DNA of 64,000 bases from a virus (IMGVR_UViG_3300014204_000145:26834-90833), one strand, 5' to 3'. Numbered from the stretch's first letter, positions 3,821-25,462 are shown. The notes: generated from the letters alone by a model not told the origin. A program made the numbers and translations.

Positions 3821-4133
3821 CTTTTAAAATTTTTAATTCTTCAATATTATATACTACTTTAATTCCTTTTTCTAATGCATGAGCAACTTCTATATCAGCT
3901 CCTGCAGATTCACCTGGTAATCTTAATAAAATATCACACATTTCTAACCACTGTAAGTCATATTGCATCCATACTTCCCAAGATTTAGGAGATAAAAGAT
4001 GTTGAAAAGCAACAAGTAGAGGTGCAAAAGGTGTAAATCCCAATTCAAGGATTTCATCAAATGTCGTCATTTGCGTTCGGACATTATCTATTTGGTCTCC
4101 TATGGTATAAGGAGATGCAATATAAACTTTCAT
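3798..4133 (-). CDS. Nucleoside 2-deoxyribosyltransferase-like (DUF4406/DUF1937-type) protein
   Basis: KVYIASPY...WLEMCDILLRLPGESAGADIEVAHA pattern. Confidence 0.7.
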   Translation of the reverse strand: MKVYIASPYTIGDQIDNVRTQMTTFDEILELGFTPFAPLLVAFQHLLSPKSWEVWMQYDLQWLEMCDILLRLPGESAGADIEVAHALEKGIKVVYNIEELKILKDANSSKS

Positions 4134-4147
4134 AAATTTTTATGTTA

Positions 4148-4435
4148 TTAGTTTTTAAATATGCTTCGGGGTGAAGCTCCTAAATGGTAATTGTAAGAAA
4201 TAAACTGTTTATCTAATTTAGATGTGATTTTATATTTCTTATAAACTTCTTGTATAATCTCATCTGCTATGCTATTATCTAATACATATGCATCATAATC
4301 AATATGCTTCATACCTTTATCATCAATAAAAGCTTCTTCTAATAATTTGTCAAAATCAGCAGAAGGGGTAGCTCTTAAATAAGCTTGTTGAAAAACTTCA
4401 TGCAAAGCTTTATTCTTTTTATCTAGTTTCTTCAT
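4148..4435 (-). CDS. Hypothetical protein
   Basis: 95-aa ORF in co-directional operon. Confidence 0.6.
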   Translation of the reverse strand: MKKLDKKNKALHEVFQQAYLRATPSADFDKLLEEAFIDDKGMKHIDYDAYVLDNSIADEIIQEVYKKYKITSKLDKQFISYNYHLGASPRSIFKN

Positions 4436-4685
4436 AACCTATTTTATCAATTATTTTATACCATTGTTGTCTATCACAATCATCACCTAAATTCCCAAAC
4501 ATTCTTTCATGTTCTAATATTTCTCTGCCAATTTGCTTTCGACTATGTGAATCTAAAGTATTCCAATTAGACAGAATTTCTGACACAGCATGTGATGCCA
4601 TATAAGTCTTTCTGCCTAAGGAATATCTAAAAATACACATTAAAGCCAACCATTTATCGCTGATTTTAATATCATCTCTGTTCAT
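4419..4685 (-). CDS. Hypothetical protein
   Basis: 88-aa ORF overlapping the next gene's start. Confidence 0.6.
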   Translation of the reverse strand: MNRDDIKISDKWLALMCIFRYSLGRKTYMASHAVSEILSNWNTLDSHSRKQIGREILEHERMFGNLGDDCDRQQWYKIIDKIGYEETR

Positions 4686-4691
4686 AATTTG

Positions 4692-5522
4692 TTAAAATAA
4701 AATATGATTTACTTTATTACATTTTAATTTTTCATTGTGTGTATCTTCGATAAAATGTAATTCAACTATACCTGAAGCTCTATTACCTTTATTAGTTTCA
4801 AAATGAAAACCATTACGTTTACCTTGAGTTTCTTGTTTAGCTGCAATATTTTGGATATACCACTTATTTCTTTGTTCAAGAGTATTATTTTGACATAATA
4901 CTTCGTGTCTAACAGGATGGATAAAACCATCATGAGTATGTTCTGTAATCCAAATATCTGCTGATGGATATGTAGCTTTTGAAATATCAATACCAAGAGA
5001 ACCTTTACTTCTAGTTCCCATAGAAAAAGGACTGTGACAAAAATGAATTACAAGTCTTGTTCTTTTATTTCTTAATCCTACTGGAGTATTTAAAATAATA
5101 TAACCTGTATATTCATGTATAGGCACATCTACACCACAAATAAGAGCTAATAAATCTATGTTATGATGTTTGACTATAGAATTATCATGATTACCTCTAT
5201 TCCAACTAATTATTCTATCTTTATAAGGTAAGATTATATCTTTTCTACTGTCTTCTATTACTTTGTTCGCATAATCGCTGCTATTGAATTTTTCTAATGT
5301 AGCCGTTTTACTTCCTCTTTTGTCATTAACAAATTGCATAACATCAATTGAATCTCCTCCTATTACTATATAAGCATTGGGGTTGTCATCAAGATATTTT
5401 TTTACATGTTTCCACATAGAAAACTCAGAGTCTTTATGTAAATCTGAAATCCAAACTATTGAAAAGTTCTTCTGTTCAATTTTTACTTCTAAGACTTCAT
5501 CAGATAATCTTTTTGTTATCAT
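4692..5522 (-). CDS. Calcineurin-like metallophosphoesterase
   Basis: ISDLH, GGDSID, RGNHD, HTH motifs. Start MITKRLS at 5522 preferred over the ORF track's 5627. Confidence 0.8.
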   Translation of the reverse strand: MITKRLSDEVLEVKIEQKNFSIVWISDLHKDSEFSMWKHVKKYLDDNPNAYIVIGGDSIDVMQFVNDKRGSKTATLEKFNSSDYANKVIEDSRKDIILPYKDRIISWNRGNHDNSIVKHHNIDLLALICGVDVPIHEYTGYIILNTPVGLRNKRTRLVIHFCHSPFSMGTRSKGSLGIDISKATYPSADIWITEHTHDGFIHPVRHEVLCQNNTLEQRNKWYIQNIAAKQETQGKRNGFHFETNKGNRASGIVELHFIEDTHNEKLKCNKVNHILF

Positions 5523-5855
5523 AATTAAAATATTAAAGGTTTTAAAAAGAGTAGTATACTCCCATAAGAATTTTATTTTCTGTAAAAGTATACTATTTCT
5601 TTTTAAAATCAAAATGTTATATGCCAAAACATATAATTTACCTTAAAATCACATTATTATATGTAAACACATATAATGCGGACTATTTTGAACATTATGC
5701 ATAGGTTTTGTGCATTATAATACACATTTTAGTATGATTTCTCATGCATTAAAGCATAAAATAACACTTAGTGCATTATATCTCATTCATTTTTAGTTAG
5801 TTGTATTGTTTTTGTGGGTACAAATATATAACTTAGCAACGAGTTAGCAAATATA

Positions 5856-6107
5856 CTATAAGACACTTACGTCTTTGTTTTTCGCTTTTACGTGTTGTTT
5901 TATTTTCGTGAATAGTTTTGTATATGCTTTTGATGTTTGAGCATCATTTAAAATATTGTCAAACATTAATTGAACTATTGCATTTCTCGATTTTTCAAAG
6001 TCTTTTACTTTTTCTTTTGAGAAATTTAGTTTTTGGTCTTTAAGTTGTTTCCCTATTGTTGGAGCTAAACAACTAAAATGTATTCCGAATGTCTTTTTTT
6101 GTTCCAT
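5856..6107 (-). CDS. Hypothetical protein in cassette-like unit 2
   Basis: 83-aa ORF, TAG stop, bracketed by GTTAACAAAT upstream and ATTTGCTAAC downstream (minus strand). Confidence 0.65.
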   Translation of the reverse strand: MEQKKTFGIHFSCLAPTIGKQLKDQKLNFSKEKVKDFEKSRNAIVQLMFDNILNDAQTSKAYTKLFTKIKQHVKAKNKDVSVL

Positions 6108-6140
6108 AATATTGTATTTATTAGATTAATTACTAAGTAC

Positions 6141-6235
6141 ATTTGTTAACAATTTGTAAAAAACAAAGCTGGATAGCTCTATAAAACTTGATAAGTAACG
6201 GTTAGCTTCGTTTCTTACAAGTCAACGTTACCTGC
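6141..6235 (-). other. attC-like recombination site (site 2)
   Basis: GCAGGTAAC-N6-TTGTAAGAAACGAAGCT...AGCTTTGTTTTTTACAA-N3-GTTAACAAAT; 17-bp stem with two G-T pairs; 95 bp total. Confidence 0.6.
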
Positions 6236-6239
6236 AATG

Positions 6240-6518
6240 CTAATCGACAATGTAGTCGTAAATTTTAGGATTAGCACATTTACCTTCAAGTAATTCACAG
6301 CTTGTAGGCGTGATTATTGCTGTTACGTGCGGGTGTTCATTTTCACACAACCATTTTATCAAAGGTCTTGCCGCTTTCTCAAAGGGTATTAAATGGTCTT
6401 TCTCTTTGTTGTCAATCCCGTTTCCTTCATAAAATTTACAATGAGGATAACCTCTTTCTTTGCAAGAATTCATAATTGTGCAAGTTTCTTTTTTCAAGCA
6501 ATTACTGCATTTTTTCAT
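6240..6518 (-). CDS. Hypothetical protein in cassette-like unit 1 (Cys-rich N-terminus)
   Basis: 92-aa ORF, TAG stop, bracketed by ATTACCTGC upstream and GCAGGTAAC downstream. Confidence 0.65.
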   Translation of the reverse strand: MKKCSNCLKKETCTIMNSCKERGYPHCKFYEGNGIDNKEKDHLIPFEKAARPLIKWLCENEHPHVTAIITPTSCELLEGKCANPKIYDYIVD

Positions 6519-6556
6519 TTTTATATTTGTTTTAAAATTAATACTAATAAAGCCAA

Positions 6557-6620
6557 GCAGGTAATACCTTGTATGTAAAATTCCGCTACGTTACACTTTA
6601 CATACAATCGTTCGTTATAT
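6557..6620 (-). other. attC-like recombination site (site 1)
   Basis: ATATAAC-N6-TTGTATGTAAA...TTTACATACAA-N3-ATTACCTGC; perfect 11-bp stem, same geometry as site 2. Confidence 0.55.
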
Positions 6621-6677
6621 TTCACACCACTAAGATACAAAACATTTAACAATATCAACTATTCTGATAACAGTATA

Positions 6678-6932
6678 TTATAACTCATCAATTAGTAAAA
6701 ATTTCTTTTTACTCCAAACACAATCATAATATCTTCCATTTTTACACATAAAAATCCTATAAAGATTTTTAGCTACTTTTTCTTGTGATAATACTATATA
6801 ATCACAAGTGTCAGTATGTAGTGTTCTTGCCTCTTTATTATAATATGTTCCATTATCTTTGATATTTTGGGACATACTTTGTAAAGAAACTAGCATTAAT
6901 ACTAATATTAATATAATATACTTTTTCATCAA
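6678..6932 (-). CDS. Secreted/membrane hypothetical protein
   Basis: N-terminal signal-like KKYIILILVLMLVSLQSMS. Confidence 0.6.
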   Translation of the reverse strand: MMKKYIILILVLMLVSLQSMSQNIKDNGTYYNKEARTLHTDTCDYIVLSQEKVAKNLYRIFMCKNGRYYDCVWSKKKFLLIDEL

Positions 6933-7180
6933 TCAAATTCAGCTAAAGTTTTCTCTCTGTTTTGAAGGACACAAGCCAGTGCAGATATAACATCACAAGG
7001 ATAGTTTCTAATCTTACCATTGACAATCATACAAGTATTACAACCCATAGCATCATTAAATTTAGCCTTAGTCACTTTAGGAAATAACTTTATCAATTGA
7101 ATTAATTCTTCTTCAGTAAATCCCCATTCAGATTCTCTAGGAAATGCTGAAACTACCTTTTCAATATCTATTGTTTGCAT
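6929..7180 (-). CDS. Hypothetical protein
   Basis: 83-aa ORF with 4-bp overlap to neighbour. Confidence 0.6.
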   Translation of the reverse strand: MQTIDIEKVVSAFPRESEWGFTEEELIQLIKLFPKVTKAKFNDAMGCNTCMIVNGKIRNYPCDVISALACVLQNREKTLAEFD

Positions 7181-7365
7181 ACTGTATGTTTATAACGTAC
7201 ACTTCTAATACCTAAAGTAATAATACTTAGGATAATACTAACTACAGAGATTTTAGGAGTTTCTAAAACTGTGAAGTTCCCTTTCTTTGTTTTAAGTAAT
7301 GAAAATCTACTATGAGATTTTTTGTGATAAATAACCTTAAAAGGTTTTTTTGCTATTTTTACCAT
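7168..7365 (-). CDS. Hypothetical small protein
   Basis: 65-aa ORF overlapping both neighbours. Confidence 0.5.
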   Translation of the reverse strand: MVKIAKKPFKVIYHKKSHSRFSLLKTKKGNFTVLETPKISVVSIILSIITLGIRSVRYKHTVCKQ

Positions 7366-7754
7366 AATTCTATTATTTTTTTAAGTTCTGTTACTTGTTT
7401 TTCTATCTTACTATCTGTAATAATAAGATTAACTATACTCTGATAAGCTCTTACTACATAAGATTCTTTTACCTCTCCTATAATCTCTCCTATTTTATCA
7501 TCAGTATCATCAGTGTATTCTCTAGCTAAATAAATTAATATCATTCTTTTAGAAGAGATTACTCTAGACCTATTCTTCTCTAAGAAAAATTCAGGAGGTT
7601 GAGCATAATATTGACAACCTATTTCTAAGATATCTTTAGCCCAAATAGGTTTAGATTTATGTACTTGAAAAGGTATGTTTAATTTCAGAAATAAATCTAA
7701 GATAAAATCTTGTACCTCTCCTTGAGGTAATTTTACTACTGCTGTTAAATCCAT
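7359..7754 (-). CDS. DnaA domain IV-like helix-turn-helix protein
   Basis: KRMILIYLAREYTDDTDDKIGEIIG...VVRAYQSI resembles the DnaA C-terminal signature; no AAA+ domain. Confidence 0.55.
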   Translation of the reverse strand: MDLTAVVKLPQGEVQDFILDLFLKLNIPFQVHKSKPIWAKDILEIGCQYYAQPPEFFLEKNRSRVISSKRMILIYLAREYTDDTDDKIGEIIGEVKESYVVRAYQSIVNLIITDSKIEKQVTELKKIIELW

Positions 7755-8069
7755 TTAAGCAATTAACAAGAAATCTTCCATAGTCATTATACCTTCAGCA
7801 CCATCATACTCTGTAATTTTAAAAGCCGTACCAACAGTTATCCAACGAATTACTAAATCACAAGCACCTCCACAATAGATATCTTCAATTCCTAAGTTTT
7901 CTTTTACCCAATCTTCATCAATGTCTTCTTGTCTGTTTTGCTCAACCATTTCTACTAATTTTGGGTTAAATAGTAGTTCTGGGTACTCTGTATTCCATGA
8001 ATACCATCCTGCACCAAACCCTTGTGAAATAAGCACAGCTACTTCACCATTTCTAATTACTTTTTCCAT
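7755..8069 (-). CDS. Conserved phage hypothetical protein
   Basis: VAVLISQGFGAGWYSWN...ITEYDGAE pattern familiar from phage hypotheticals. Confidence 0.65.
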   Translation of the reverse strand: MEKVIRNGEVAVLISQGFGAGWYSWNTEYPELLFNPKLVEMVEQNRQEDIDEDWVKENLGIEDIYCGGACDLVIRWITVGTAFKITEYDGAEGIMTMEDFLLIA

Positions 8070-8232
8070 ATTATTTATTTTTCTTTACTTTAGTATAAAC
8101 TTTAGTTCTTGATTTACAATTTATAAAATCATTCCACCTTTCATTTTTCTTACAAACTCTGTTGAAATATTCTGTACCGTCATCAAATTTTGCATTGAAT
8201 AAATCACCTTCTCTTATAGTGTCATCCATATT

Positions 8233-8409
8233 TTAATCTTGAAAATGTTTAATAATAGGTTCATAATCATCGTCTTCTTTATTATCTTTCCATCTTGAAA
8301 ATAACGAAAAATCTTCTTCGTCTTCATCTTCTTTCCAATGTGAAAATATATTTATTGGTTCAAAGTCGTCTTCTGAATCTTCAAGCCAATTTTTACCAAA
8401 CATTGCCAT
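8233..8409 (-). CDS. 58-aa highly acidic mini-protein
   Basis: Hand-translated: MAMFGKNWLEDSEDDFEPINIFSHWKEDEDEEDFSLFSRWKDNKEDDDYEPIIKHFQD. Confidence 0.55.
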   Translation of the reverse strand: MAMFGKNWLEDSEDDFEPINIFSHWKEDEDEEDFSLFSRWKDNKEDDDYEPIIKHFQD

Positions 8410-8553
8410 AATTCTATTTTAAATTAAAATACTCACCACACTCATTACATAAAATATCTAAAACAGGTAAATCAGGTTGAGTGTAATCATAATTAATATG
8501 TAAATTTTCTTTTTCACCACATTTAGGGCAAATGATTTCATCTTCTTCCATAG

Positions 8554-9183
8554 CTAAGGTTCTAAAAATTTTTGTGTTATAACTGTTTTAACTTCTTCAT
8601 AAGAATAGGGTGTAGGATTAAAGAAACCATCTTTTGTTCTTGTATCAACTCCAACATCTATTGCATTCCATGAGGGATGTTTATAAGAATTATGACAGTG
8701 TCCATATAGATGAAAACTGCCTCTTTCTTTACCTGCCCATGAAGCCATAGGGAAATGACACATTACAATATCTTGTTCTGCACCTTTAGCATCTTCATCA
8801 TAAACTTTTATCTCTAATATATCACAAGTTTCTAAAGGAGAAGCTTTAGCTGTATTATTTTTAATAAAACATTTATCATGATTACCTCTTATATGGTATA
8901 TTTGACCATTAAGTTGGTCTATGATTTGTTGATATTTATGAGGAGAGTCACTCCATATAAAGTCTCCTAGCATAAATACAGCATCTCCATCACTCACTGC
9001 ATCATTCCAACATCTTATCATTAAACTATTCATATCTTCAGTTGTAAGGTGTTTAGGCTTTTTAGAACCTAAATCCTTATAACTAAAGTATCTCTTAGCA
9101 TAATCCAAAATATTTGCGTGGTGAAAATGTGGGTCGGACAGAAAAAATATTCTATCTTTATTAAAAGGTGTTTTTATTCTCAT
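8554..9183 (-). CDS. Calcineurin-like metallophosphoesterase
   Basis: LSDPHFHH, LGDF, RGNHD, LYGHCH motifs. Confidence 0.85.
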   Translation of the reverse strand: MRIKTPFNKDRIFFLSDPHFHHANILDYAKRYFSYKDLGSKKPKHLTTEDMNSLMIRCWNDAVSDGDAVFMLGDFIWSDSPHKYQQIIDQLNGQIYHIRGNHDKCFIKNNTAKASPLETCDILEIKVYDEDAKGAEQDIVMCHFPMASWAGKERGSFHLYGHCHNSYKHPSWNAIDVGVDTRTKDGFFNPTPYSYEEVKTVITQKFLEP

Positions 9184-20937: not shown

Positions 20938-21341
20938 AATCTTATTTTTAGTTAATAATTAGTTTAATTGTAAAAACTCTCTCCTAGCATTAATGTAGAT
21001 GTGTAAACACATGAAATTACCGATTTTAATAGAATATAATACTTAATGTATAAGGAAGCGTAGGAGAGAGTATGTTGTAAGAAAAAGATTAGTGATACCT
21101 ATCCTTTGAGGTATAACTCATAAATCGTTTTCTTAAAGTTTTTAATGTTTTGTTTAAAATCCAAGATTTAGTCTGATAACCTTGGGAAGAGTTGTTGTAA
21201 ATTCATGAAGTTTTACTTAAGAAGCTGCACATAGCTCCTGAATAATAAATAGTCTTAATTAAGTTGTTAGGAAGTTATAATACTTCAGTACTAAGTTAAT
21301 TTTGCCCATCAAAGGAAAACTATTTACTATTAGATTTTAAA

Positions 21342-21550
21342 AATAAGTTACTGATGATAAACATCTATATAAAACTAATCTTTTCGCACGTAAGTTCACC
21401 AAAAGATGGTTGAGTACCCGACAGTGTACTAGGTTCCGATGCGCAGTAATGTGTCTTATCTATCTTGTTTTATATTAACACCAACCAATATTCTATGCTT
21501 CTCAATCAATTGAAGCCATCCTGTTTAAGAACTTGGTTCAGTAACTTATT
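21342..21550 (-). ncRNA. Putative multi-helix structured ncRNA
   Basis: 13-bp perfect terminal stem AATAAGTTACTGA/TCAGTAACTTATT plus internal helices; no ORF; strand inferred from context. Confidence 0.5.
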
Positions 21551-21561
21551 AGATTTTAATG

Positions 21562-21634
21562 CAGCAAAGGCTGGACTTGAACCAACAACCTCCTGCAGGC
21601 CGTGCAGGTACTCCGCCAATTGAGCTTCTTTGCT
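21562..21634 (-). tRNA. tRNA-like gene with non-canonical anticodon loop (nominal GGC)
   Basis: Acceptor AGCAAAG/CTTTGCT, D-arm GCTC/GAGT, anticodon arm CCTGC-ACGGCCT-GCAGG (no U33, no purine 37), T-loop TTCAAGT. Confidence 0.7.
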
Positions 21635-21926
21635 TATCATTTATTTTTATTACGTAATTATTATAAATGAACTTAACTTCTTCACAAAGTTAAATGTTTT
21701 TAAAAACAGCACTCTTCGACTCCTCTGGTTAATGTAACTACTTTGTGCACTTTCATTACAATGGTTTGCTAAGTATAGGGTGTTGTTATGTTTTAATTTT
21801 GTTTAGTTTTATGATATTCAATATCTAAACCACATTCATAACAGTATATACCATCATAAATGCTTTGACAATTTGGACATATATGTATAAAATTGCCTTC
21901 TATTTGGTCTAATAAATCTTCATCCA

Positions 21927-22440: not shown

Positions 22441-23019
22441 AATTAATAATCTGACTCAACATATGATAATGTTGTTACCAGATAGTACCCTTTGACAATT
22501 AGTGGGTTAGTATTAATTATTATAAGAAAATAATAAACAGTAATCTTTACCTTTTAGAAAGGGATAGTCGAGGCCTCGTTTTGAATAAGTATACACTTAA
22601 ACTTCGAAATTTAGTCGGCTTCTCCAAGAGCTATACTTTACTGTTTATTATTATAAGAAAGTAACAAGTAAGGATATTTTTTTACAGTCTTCCCGAGTAA
22701 CTGTTTTACATTGGCGGTTAACTCCAAAAACTAACCTTATCAGTGAAAGTACTCACTTGTCACTATATTTTAAAAATGGTGGTAATAGCTTCAGCACTTC
22801 TGCTCTGAACCCTTTTAAGTTTAAAGTGCAGTTCGGGATACTGCATTACAGTTTTTCATTACCACCATTATTGATAAGTACATGTTTGTTTATAAATTCT
22901 TCGCATTAATATCTTGCGTGAATAACCAGGAATTGACTTTTGGTAGACTTCCTGAACTTTCTTCTACCTACATGGACTATATTTTAAAGGAGCTACTCAA
23001 CGGAACTTTATACTTATCA
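22441..23019 (-). ncRNA. Tandem array of five terminal-stem-closed putative ncRNAs
   Basis: Inverted-repeat-bounded units 22441-22518, 22529-22652, 22660-22764, 22775-22869, 22872-23019 with 2-10-nt spacers; no ORFs in the track. Confidence 0.5.
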
Positions 23020-25302: not shown

Positions 25303-25462
25303 AGTTTTATATTTTAGGTTAATAATTTCTTAGGGAAGCAAGGAGTATTGAGGTTACAAATCTCACTCCTTGCTATTTGCTACTCACTCAGTAGCCAATG
25401 TCTTACTGTACATTAGTTTAAACGTAAACTGTTCTCTGTAAGAGGAGCAACTAACCGTGTAG

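Follow-up and report, generated by a model that had tools for sequence, protein, structure and literature searches.

A probable two-cassette insertion of an integron-like gene-capture system in a crAss-like phage genome

Two neighbouring small genes on the minus strand of a phage genome are each preceded by a hairpin that resembles the attC site of an integron and are each enclosed by complementary core sequences, which raises the question of whether they are gene cassettes and, if so, by which enzyme they could be exchanged. In the current work, the whole stretch of DNA analysed (64,000 nt, referred to as the window, from the first base of which all positions are counted) corresponds to bases 26834-90833 of a virus record, which is complete at 90,833 bp and carries direct terminal repeats. 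The genome contains approximately 30% G+C and displays a crAss-like layout, and the major capsid protein shares 43% identity with its counterparts in gut crAss-like phages and also matches Flavobacterium and Cellulophaga phages. The two genes, here named ORF2 (6240-6518) and ORF1 (5856-6107), are located in a minus-strand block of small genes, in which they alone possess intergenic spacers at both sides. We consider it likely that positions 5844-6614 represent the insertion of two cassettes from an integron-like system of gene capture that is native to Flavobacteriaceae and their phages.

Read in the sense of the genes, that is on the minus strand, the first unit (the ORF2 cassette, 6228-6614) extends from the C of the TAAC of site 1 to the TAA of the next core and comprises site 1, a leader and ORF2, and the second unit (the ORF1 cassette, 5844-6227) comprises site 2, a leader and ORF1, up to the TAA of a TAAC at 5846-5843. 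Site 2 (6143-6234) is an intact attC-like site, consisting of TAAC (6230-6227), a spacer (6226-6221), a 17-bp stem (6220-6204 with 6170-6154), a second spacer (6153-6151) and GTTA (6150-6147). Site 1 (6558-6621) is short and partly decayed: TAAC (6617-6614) is followed by a 6-nt spacer, a stem of 11-13 bp (6607-6597 with 6579-6569; 13 bp in the geometry scan), a 3-nt spacer and a core reading ATTA (6565-6562) instead of GTTA. With lengths of 56-64 nt and 84-92 nt, the two sites carry AAC...GTT inverse cores around an imperfect hairpin, as in the definition of a classical attC site, the hairpin of which measures about 57-141 nt with spacers of about 5 and 6 nt; the window sites, with spacers of 6 and 3 nt, do show the non-canonical asymmetry that an earlier reading made from the sequence only (the sequence-only reading) had remarked upon. 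The stems are continuous and contain no extrahelical bases, G.T wobbles being their sole irregularity. In site 2, two or three G.T (G.U) pairs are present on the gene-sense strand, because of which the full stem does not form with DNA parameters; folding with RNA parameters yields a z-score of -2.7.

A literal version of the hairpin motif, which was defined post hoc, occurs at only two places in the 90.8-kb genome (0.06 expected), and in a looser scan for stems those of 8-10 bp represent background (approximately 18 expected), the 13- and 17-bp stems being clear outliers. A covariance model (R1), constructed from ten sites of other contigs with the window sites excluded from training, assigns, with both matches in gene sense, 43.6 bits (E 4e-7) to site 2 and a marginal 23.7 bits (E 0.006-0.012) to site 1, and finds nothing else significant in the 90.8-kb phage. 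Rfam searches of the window region and of four array contigs returned noise only. The ends of each unit are complementary to one another: in the ORF2 unit, 6565-6557 pairs with 6235-6227 through eight Watson-Crick pairs, and in the ORF1 unit, 6150-6137 pairs with 5856-5843 over 14 nt, of which 12 are Watson-Crick pairs, one is G.T and one is a mismatch, the G.T being at position 11 as is typical of the site family. The two hairpins put forward by the sequence-only reading are therefore confirmed by sequence, by folding and by a model built without them, and its two core pairs are likewise real. The truncated third site that it had placed at 5822-5852 is borne out in part: a core is present (5843-5856, minus strand), the TAAC of which (5846-5843) terminates the ORF1 cassette and is joined to the phage backbone, but no hairpin follows, R1 giving no match downstream. 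Upstream of the insertion in the window, no partner core exists.

ORF2 encodes a Cys-rich protein of 92 aa with matches to PHROG 16206 and 4621, both of unknown function, and ORF1 encodes an 83-aa protein, also of unknown function, for which no Pfam or PHROG match was obtained. Homologues of ORF2 with 59-95% identity occur in unrelated contigs; those of ORF1 are 73-76% identical, in addition to a chimeric copy with 98% nucleotide identity over the C-terminal half. The copy of ORF2 in contig L010, which is otherwise unrelated to the phage, is 95% identical at protein level and 91.5% at DNA level, with 15 synonymous versus 5 amino-acid-changing codon differences, and on the basis of coding comparisons ORF2 is taken to be a real gene under purifying selection. 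Both ORFs do end in TAG, as had been pointed out from the sequence, this stop being found in 11 out of 103 crude gene calls; within the family of ORF2, it falls in a conserved 3' end common to another cassette gene. Both window genes start after the core, unlike many phage cassettes, in which the gene starts in the loop.

The contigs L010, L015 and L018 are arrays of small genes, each gene being preceded by a folded site in which TAAC (usually then G) and a spacer lead into a stem of 20-26 bp with an A-rich loop, GTTA following after 2-3 nt; most of these sites span 124-127 nt. In the ten-site alignment that underlies R1, 95% of cells are paired, a figure to be read in the light of the scan by which the training sites were chosen, since this required a stem and the basal pairs are paired by construction; compensatory change is seen at 14 of the 22 pairs and one G.U pair is invariant. 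Covariation in this alignment amounts to 0.59 versus 0.15 in shuffles, a level reached by none of 500 shuffles, and controls with slid partners attain at most 45% pairing. Combining a pattern scan with R1, 82 sites were confirmed across approximately 40 viral contigs, including an array of twelve; five are present in a complete 56.7-kb phage, and three in the isolated lytic Polaribacter phage P12002L, where they lie between small genes, among which is that of a DNA methyltransferase cassette. A blastn search of one element against isolated phages gave noise only. The stems are unit-specific, and neither sigma-70-like nor Bacteroidetes promoter hexamers are conserved in the sites; a TTATTAAC-like box, considered as a promoter within sites, proved not to be a feature of them. 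In phage cassettes the start codon is often located in the hairpin loop with the frame running through the 3' arm, so that the GTT of GTTA is in frame as Val in all eight elements with an ORF starting in the loop, and in one cassette the stretch of loop and 3' arm forms part of a signal peptide. In the 56.7-kb phage (L006), it was also observed that a homologue of ORF2 lies between the copies of a 70-bp direct repeat (3855-3925 and 4355-4425), which has a hairpin of its own and is a punctuation element different from the R1 sites elsewhere in that genome.

The complementarity of unit ends is a property of the family. In 39 cassettes, the stretch of 14 nt from GTTA onwards pairs with the last 14 nt up to and including the next TAAC (the own-end rule): Watson-Crick pairs are formed at positions 5-9 in 36-39 cassettes, a G.T occupies position 11 in 29, and pairing at positions 12-14 is seen in 31-35. 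These cassettes display 35 distinct hexamers, and pairs made of ends from different cassettes average 3.2 of 10. Both window units follow the rule, which supports their description, by the sequence-only reading, as integron-type single-gene cassettes with attC-like folded sites.

The boundaries of the units were examined in contigs that share them. Homology of the ORF2 unit to L010 begins at the upstream core (6558) and runs to the contig end, exactly on TAAC, and the end cores of L010 differ from those of the window at three adjacent positions on both sides with pairing preserved, which constitutes covariation. L015, L016 and L017 carry the ORF2 unit at 81-82% nucleotide identity, with homology from 6564 and a GTTA-type core; they are mutually 98-99% identical and diverge directly after the TAAC that ends the unit (window 6230-6227); between L015 and L016 there is a further divergence upstream, at the TAAC before it. 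L018 is 98% identical to the window from 5992 through exactly 5843, the C of TAAC, and divergent thereafter. Shared units thus break at TAAC/GTTA cores, and the check suggested by the sequence-only reading turned out in its favour. An exception is the other L018 breakpoint, at window 5992, which lies inside the ORF1 coding sequence; therefore, ordinary recombination also shuffles cassette units. In L018 this segment (1393-1543, window 5992-5843) encodes the C-terminal half of ORF1 and is preceded by an N-terminal part of different sequence, the result being a chimeric cassette gene. Three short contigs (L010, L016 and L017) end or begin exactly at a TAAC core, as is expected of an assembly graph if the following sequence varies within the sample. 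As separate observations, region 1466-2037 of L010 contains a perfect 22-bp inverted repeat around an uncalled Cys-rich ORF of approximately 70 aa, and a 16-bp stem that closes a loop of approximately 215 nt without an obvious gene, possibly an empty or giant site.

Bacterial genomes were searched by a site pattern scan filtered with R1, followed by whole-genome searches, and R1 arrays were found in many Flavobacteriaceae chromosomes, R1 sites being present in 57 of the 61 genomes sampled from one family of Flavobacteriaceae type. The chromosomal arrays are composed of co-oriented sites, up to at least 55 over 124 kb. In three of the four genomes examined, a tyrosine recombinase of 376-400 aa is encoded 0.5-0.8 kb past one array end, always in the same relative orientation and co-directional with the cassette genes. 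Among NCBIfam models, 'XerA / integron integrase' fits this enzyme best, with scores that exceed the cut-off for two of the three recombinases; the integron integrase model TIGR02249 matches in two pieces with 187-204 bits versus a cut-off of 265, and, compared to VchIntIA (PDB 2a3v), the IntI-specific insertion of approximately 50 residues (199-248) is missing. A hairpin-less GTTA core, which resembles the attI of a classical integron, is positioned directly after the recombinase gene. The bacterial cassette genes are mostly of unknown function, one specifying a KAP NTPase. A tblastn comparison of phage cassette proteins with the bacterial loci found almost nothing in common, so direct exchange between the phage and bacterial pools lacks support from this search. 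Beside the recombinase, three Flavobacteriaceae genomes have a small divergent gene of 124-135 aa without Pfam match (L207 3616-3999, L208 3517-3924 and L209 2391-2765), the product of which may be an accessory factor.

Searches of the complete phage genome with PF00589, PF00239 and PF01797 retrieved no tyrosine, serine or Y1 recombinase, which extends to the whole genome what the sequence-only reading had stated for the vicinity of the cassettes. Its further proposal of a Bacteroidota attC-like/tyrosine-recombinase system acting in trans finds its counterpart in the Flavobacteriaceae arrays and their adjacent recombinase; from these we infer the action in trans. With two R1 sites approximately 390 nt apart on a replicon without integrase, the phage region corresponds to a CALIN when this is judged by R1-family sites instead of the classical attC model.

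The bacterial arrays have their genes on the strand complementary to R1, which is the canonical order of gene then site, and their top-strand site reads TAAC, 3 nt, stem, 5-6 nt, GTTA. All phage arrays that were examined have the genes on the R1 strand, mirrored relative to the bacterial ones. From the gene strands of the bacterial arrays it follows that the R1 strand is the equivalent of the attC bottom strand. On the top strand, G.T wobbles become A.C mismatches and in this manner would confer a strand bias, as extrahelical bases do in classical attC. The comparison of contigs that are 98-99% identical places the predicted crossover at TAA/C on the gene-sense strand (the slash marking the point of exchange), and the TAAC breakpoints correspond to the classical crossover, which is G/TT on the top strand and AA/C on the bottom strand. 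With the crossover at TAA/C, each phage cassette therefore owns the hairpin upstream of its gene, so that of the layout given by the sequence-only reading the single-gene units stand, but not the attribution to each gene of the hairpin downstream of it.

In gene sense, a cassette consists of a folded site with the gene behind it. In the site, TAAC and GTTA enclose a long, G.T-wobbled stem and its loop, from which they are set apart by spacers of 6 and 3 nt, respectively, and the last approximately 14 nt of the cassette pair with the approximately 14 nt from GTTA onwards. In the mechanism that we propose, the gene-sense strand, as equivalent of the attC bottom strand, would fold as single-stranded DNA, and a Xer/IntI-like tyrosine recombinase would cut and exchange the folded strand at TAA/C. 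This enzyme would be the one encoded beside the chromosomal arrays of the host family, with capture and loss of cassettes in the phage occurring in trans during infection. As the phage is devoid of a recombinase, exchange would have to depend on a host enzyme, and most candidate hosts appear to have such a recombinase. That R1-family sites recombine is a reading suggested by comparison of their sequences and structures. Because of the mirrored genes, the lack of extrahelical bases and a recombinase without the IntI-specific insertion, the system is an integron-like relative and not a classical IntI/attC system. Of the two window sites, the second looks intact and the first is both shortened and deprived of the crossover G, which is replaced by A; the distal end is without hairpin. 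This state fits a two-cassette insertion into a secondary site of the backbone, and the copy is probably now partly fixed in place.

A comparison with an empty site was impossible because no close relative of the phage was found, the best flanking protein being 71% identical. Megablast of window 4000-9000 against isolated phages yielded no close relative, tblastn of ORF2 against isolated phages no match, and the flanking phosphoesterase, when searched in viral and metagenome collections, only relatives of at most 71% identity with shuffled gene order. The sole long relative (L002) has shuffled small genes, and both ORFs are absent from it.

Several other elements were observed in the phage genome. 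Within the 333-nt intergenic region 5523-5855, upstream of the phosphoesterase gene (the true start of which is probably 5522), a 10-nt TATAATGCAC-like box occurs several times and a TAnnTTTG box of the Bacteroidetes -7 type twice, and immediately ahead of the gene a strong hairpin lies between an A tract and a T tract; this stretch may represent a regulatory region or an origin. In at least six minus-strand intergenic regions, a TTATTAAC-like box is located 14-20 nt 5' of the start codon (for example at window positions 25318, 20951, 18491, 17384 and 13186, minus strand), often directly after a terminator or tRNA-like gene, and is a candidate promoter or translation-initiation element. In regions 22441-23019 and 20976-21787, non-coding units follow one another in rows. 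Every unit has an inverted repeat by which it is closed, the G.U pairs fall on the minus strand, and a CTTATAATAAT box recurs ahead of the units, which are not R1 sites and look like small structured RNAs.

The conserved hairpins could also have their function in RNA. On this account the hairpins and the end pairing act in phage mRNA, for instance by exposing the start codon in an open loop, by contributing to processing or stability, or by terminating transcription, and unit boundaries coincide through selection for intact expression units. Such a role would fit the fact that all non-Watson-Crick pairs are G.U on the gene-sense strand and that site 2 folds with RNA and not with DNA parameters, as it would the in-frame Val of all eight loop-start elements and the presence of other stem-closed non-coding units in the phage genome. 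The genes of the bacterial arrays, however, lie on the opposite strand, where the mRNA would have A.C mismatches, yet the structure is conserved there beside a recombinase; breakpoints fall exactly at TAAC in several independent comparisons; and the evident terminators of the phage are GC-rich hairpins followed by T runs, a different structure. Since the structure is kept in bacteria, antisense to the genes and beside a recombinase, its primary role is placed at the DNA level, and we regard an explanation from RNA as unlikely; a terminator, processing or start-presenting hairpin was for the same reasons dropped as the primary role. Any RNA role of the hairpins in phages would be secondary, although, as phage hairpins are transcribed on the sense strand, it could explain part of their conservation.

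Exchange between co-infecting phages by homologous or microhomology recombination, acting on conserved regulatory cassettes and involving no dedicated recombinase, is decidedly unlikely as an explanation of the locus. The PeSLs and mini-circles of T4-type phages (PMC2839356) provide a precedent, the single small genes with their own intergenic punctuation are situated in a region of shuffled gene order relative to L002, and the L018 breakpoint inside a gene is of this kind; against this, the sequence common to crossovers is only 4-5 nt long with stems that are unit-specific, the sites have no conserved sigma-70-like or Bacteroidetes promoter, bacterial sites are associated with a recombinase and an attI-like core, and own-end complementarity has no role in such a model. 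It is very improbable that the sites are small non-autonomous transposable elements (MITE/Correia-like or of the IS200/IS605 hairpin type) which flank small genes by chance, for although a uniform size of approximately 125-135 nt, many copies per genome and long terminal inverted repeats are reminiscent of such elements, target sites are not duplicated, the copies within an array all share one orientation and alternate with single genes, the two ends of a gene pair with one another, and the phage is without Y1 transposase whereas a tyrosine recombinase sits at the bacterial array end. IS200/IS605-type elements, MITEs, translational bypassing and invertible segments were each ruled out on anatomy. 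Chance hairpins or ordinary terminators around two orphan genes have a negligible probability: the shuffle z-scores of site 1 are unremarkable and an inverted repeat of 8 bp shared by two AT-rich intergenic regions is in itself nothing unusual, but the R1 matches, the family-wide own-end rule and the exact breakpoints contradict such a reading.

Taking the two-cassette insertion as the preferred reading, a more general proposition, to which we give about even chances, is that Flavobacteriaceae and phages ranging from crAss-like to siphovirus-like share a capture system that is a sister to integrons, with a Xer-like recombinase without IntI insertion, folded sites biased by G.T wobbles, a separate 'mirror' pool in phages, and lytic phages borrowing the host enzyme. 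In cassettes of the mirror pool, the site would be upstream of the gene, and its loop and 3' arm would double as translation start and first codons; small genes would be traded by lytic phages that lack a recombinase, with the enzyme of the infected host being put to use. The prevailing view holds integrons to be bacterial, IntI-dependent and for the most part proteobacterial; here the same cassette grammar is encountered in a crAss-like phage, in many other phage contigs and, across a major family of marine bacteria, in almost all genomes sampled, where the linked recombinase is simpler and would be passed over as an integrase by standard integron surveys, since these require the IntI insertion. 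If the mechanism is true, it would explain the precise exchange of single genes by lytic phages without recombinase, such as the methyltransferase cassette of P12002L, would provide a clue, drawn from sequence, as to which host an uncultured crAss-like phage infects, and would offer a model of site evolution in which a recombination hairpin doubles as a translation start.

Complementarity of the cassette start to its own inverse core is the hallmark of integrons, and is among the features in which R1 cassettes and classical integrons agree, together with AAC/GTT inverse cores around an imperfect hairpin of which structure rather than sequence is conserved, a crossover corresponding to G/TT (AA/C on the bottom strand) and a strand asymmetry that favours folding of the bottom strand. 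Long co-oriented arrays beside a tyrosine recombinase, with a hairpin-less first site, are likewise as in sedentary chromosomal integrons. The R1-linked recombinase differs in lacking the IntI insertion of approximately 50 aa and in being co-directional with the cassettes, and the sites differ in deriving their strand asymmetry from G.T wobbles, in spacers of 6 and 3 nt and in an end pairing of approximately 14 nt; phage genes are moreover on the bottom-strand orientation of the site, the bacterial R1 arrays being canonical. Integron surveys have reported few integrons in Bacteroidetes (PMC9024848).

The recombinase-first, co-directional and repeat-punctuated layout of the Flavobacteriaceae arrays is also that of the rAID-1 arrays of Bacteroidales (Ross 2019, 10.1101/471110), as far as the available part of that source describes them, and it is to the layout that this likeness pertains. 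The rAID-1 arrangement, namely a XerD-like recombinase, then co-directional genes with repetitive intergenic sites, is seen in the Flavobacteriaceae arrays, the window being without recombinase. rAID-1 arrays contain immunity genes of gut Bacteroidales, and the same part of the source (10.1101/471110) mentions neither phage-borne arrays nor a defined folded site. PeSLs of T4-type phages (Arbiol 2010, PMC2839356) resemble the window units in that small accessory genes are punctuated by stem-loops and exchanged as modules, circular intermediates having been detected for PeSL cassettes, and are distinct in being direct repeats with a sigma-70 promoter which recombine by homology, without own-end complementarity or a dedicated recombinase; they may accordingly be seen as functional analogues only.

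In a limited literature search, no paper was found that joins the R1 site family, its recombinase and mirrored phage cassettes. Together with the rAID-1 arrays, the nearest relatives in the literature are phage CALINs (Qi 2023, PMC9892861), in which, according to the part of that paper available to us, at least two attC-type sites likewise bound single genes in a phage without integrase, and the set of which includes Polaribacter phage P12002L. In this part of the paper, a crAss-like phage is absent from the examples, and the HattCI-predicted P12002L_attC1 is the only tested phage site that was not recombined by IntI1; its oligonucleotide has an R1-like geometry (TAAC, 6 nt, stem, 2-3 nt, GTTA), whereas the validated sites recombined with IntI1, a result that agrees with a different cognate enzyme for the R1 geometry. 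Relative to the phage CALINs as described there, R1 sites form a distinct family, characterized by stems without extrahelical bases, by mirrored genes and by a linked enzyme that is not a classical IntI.
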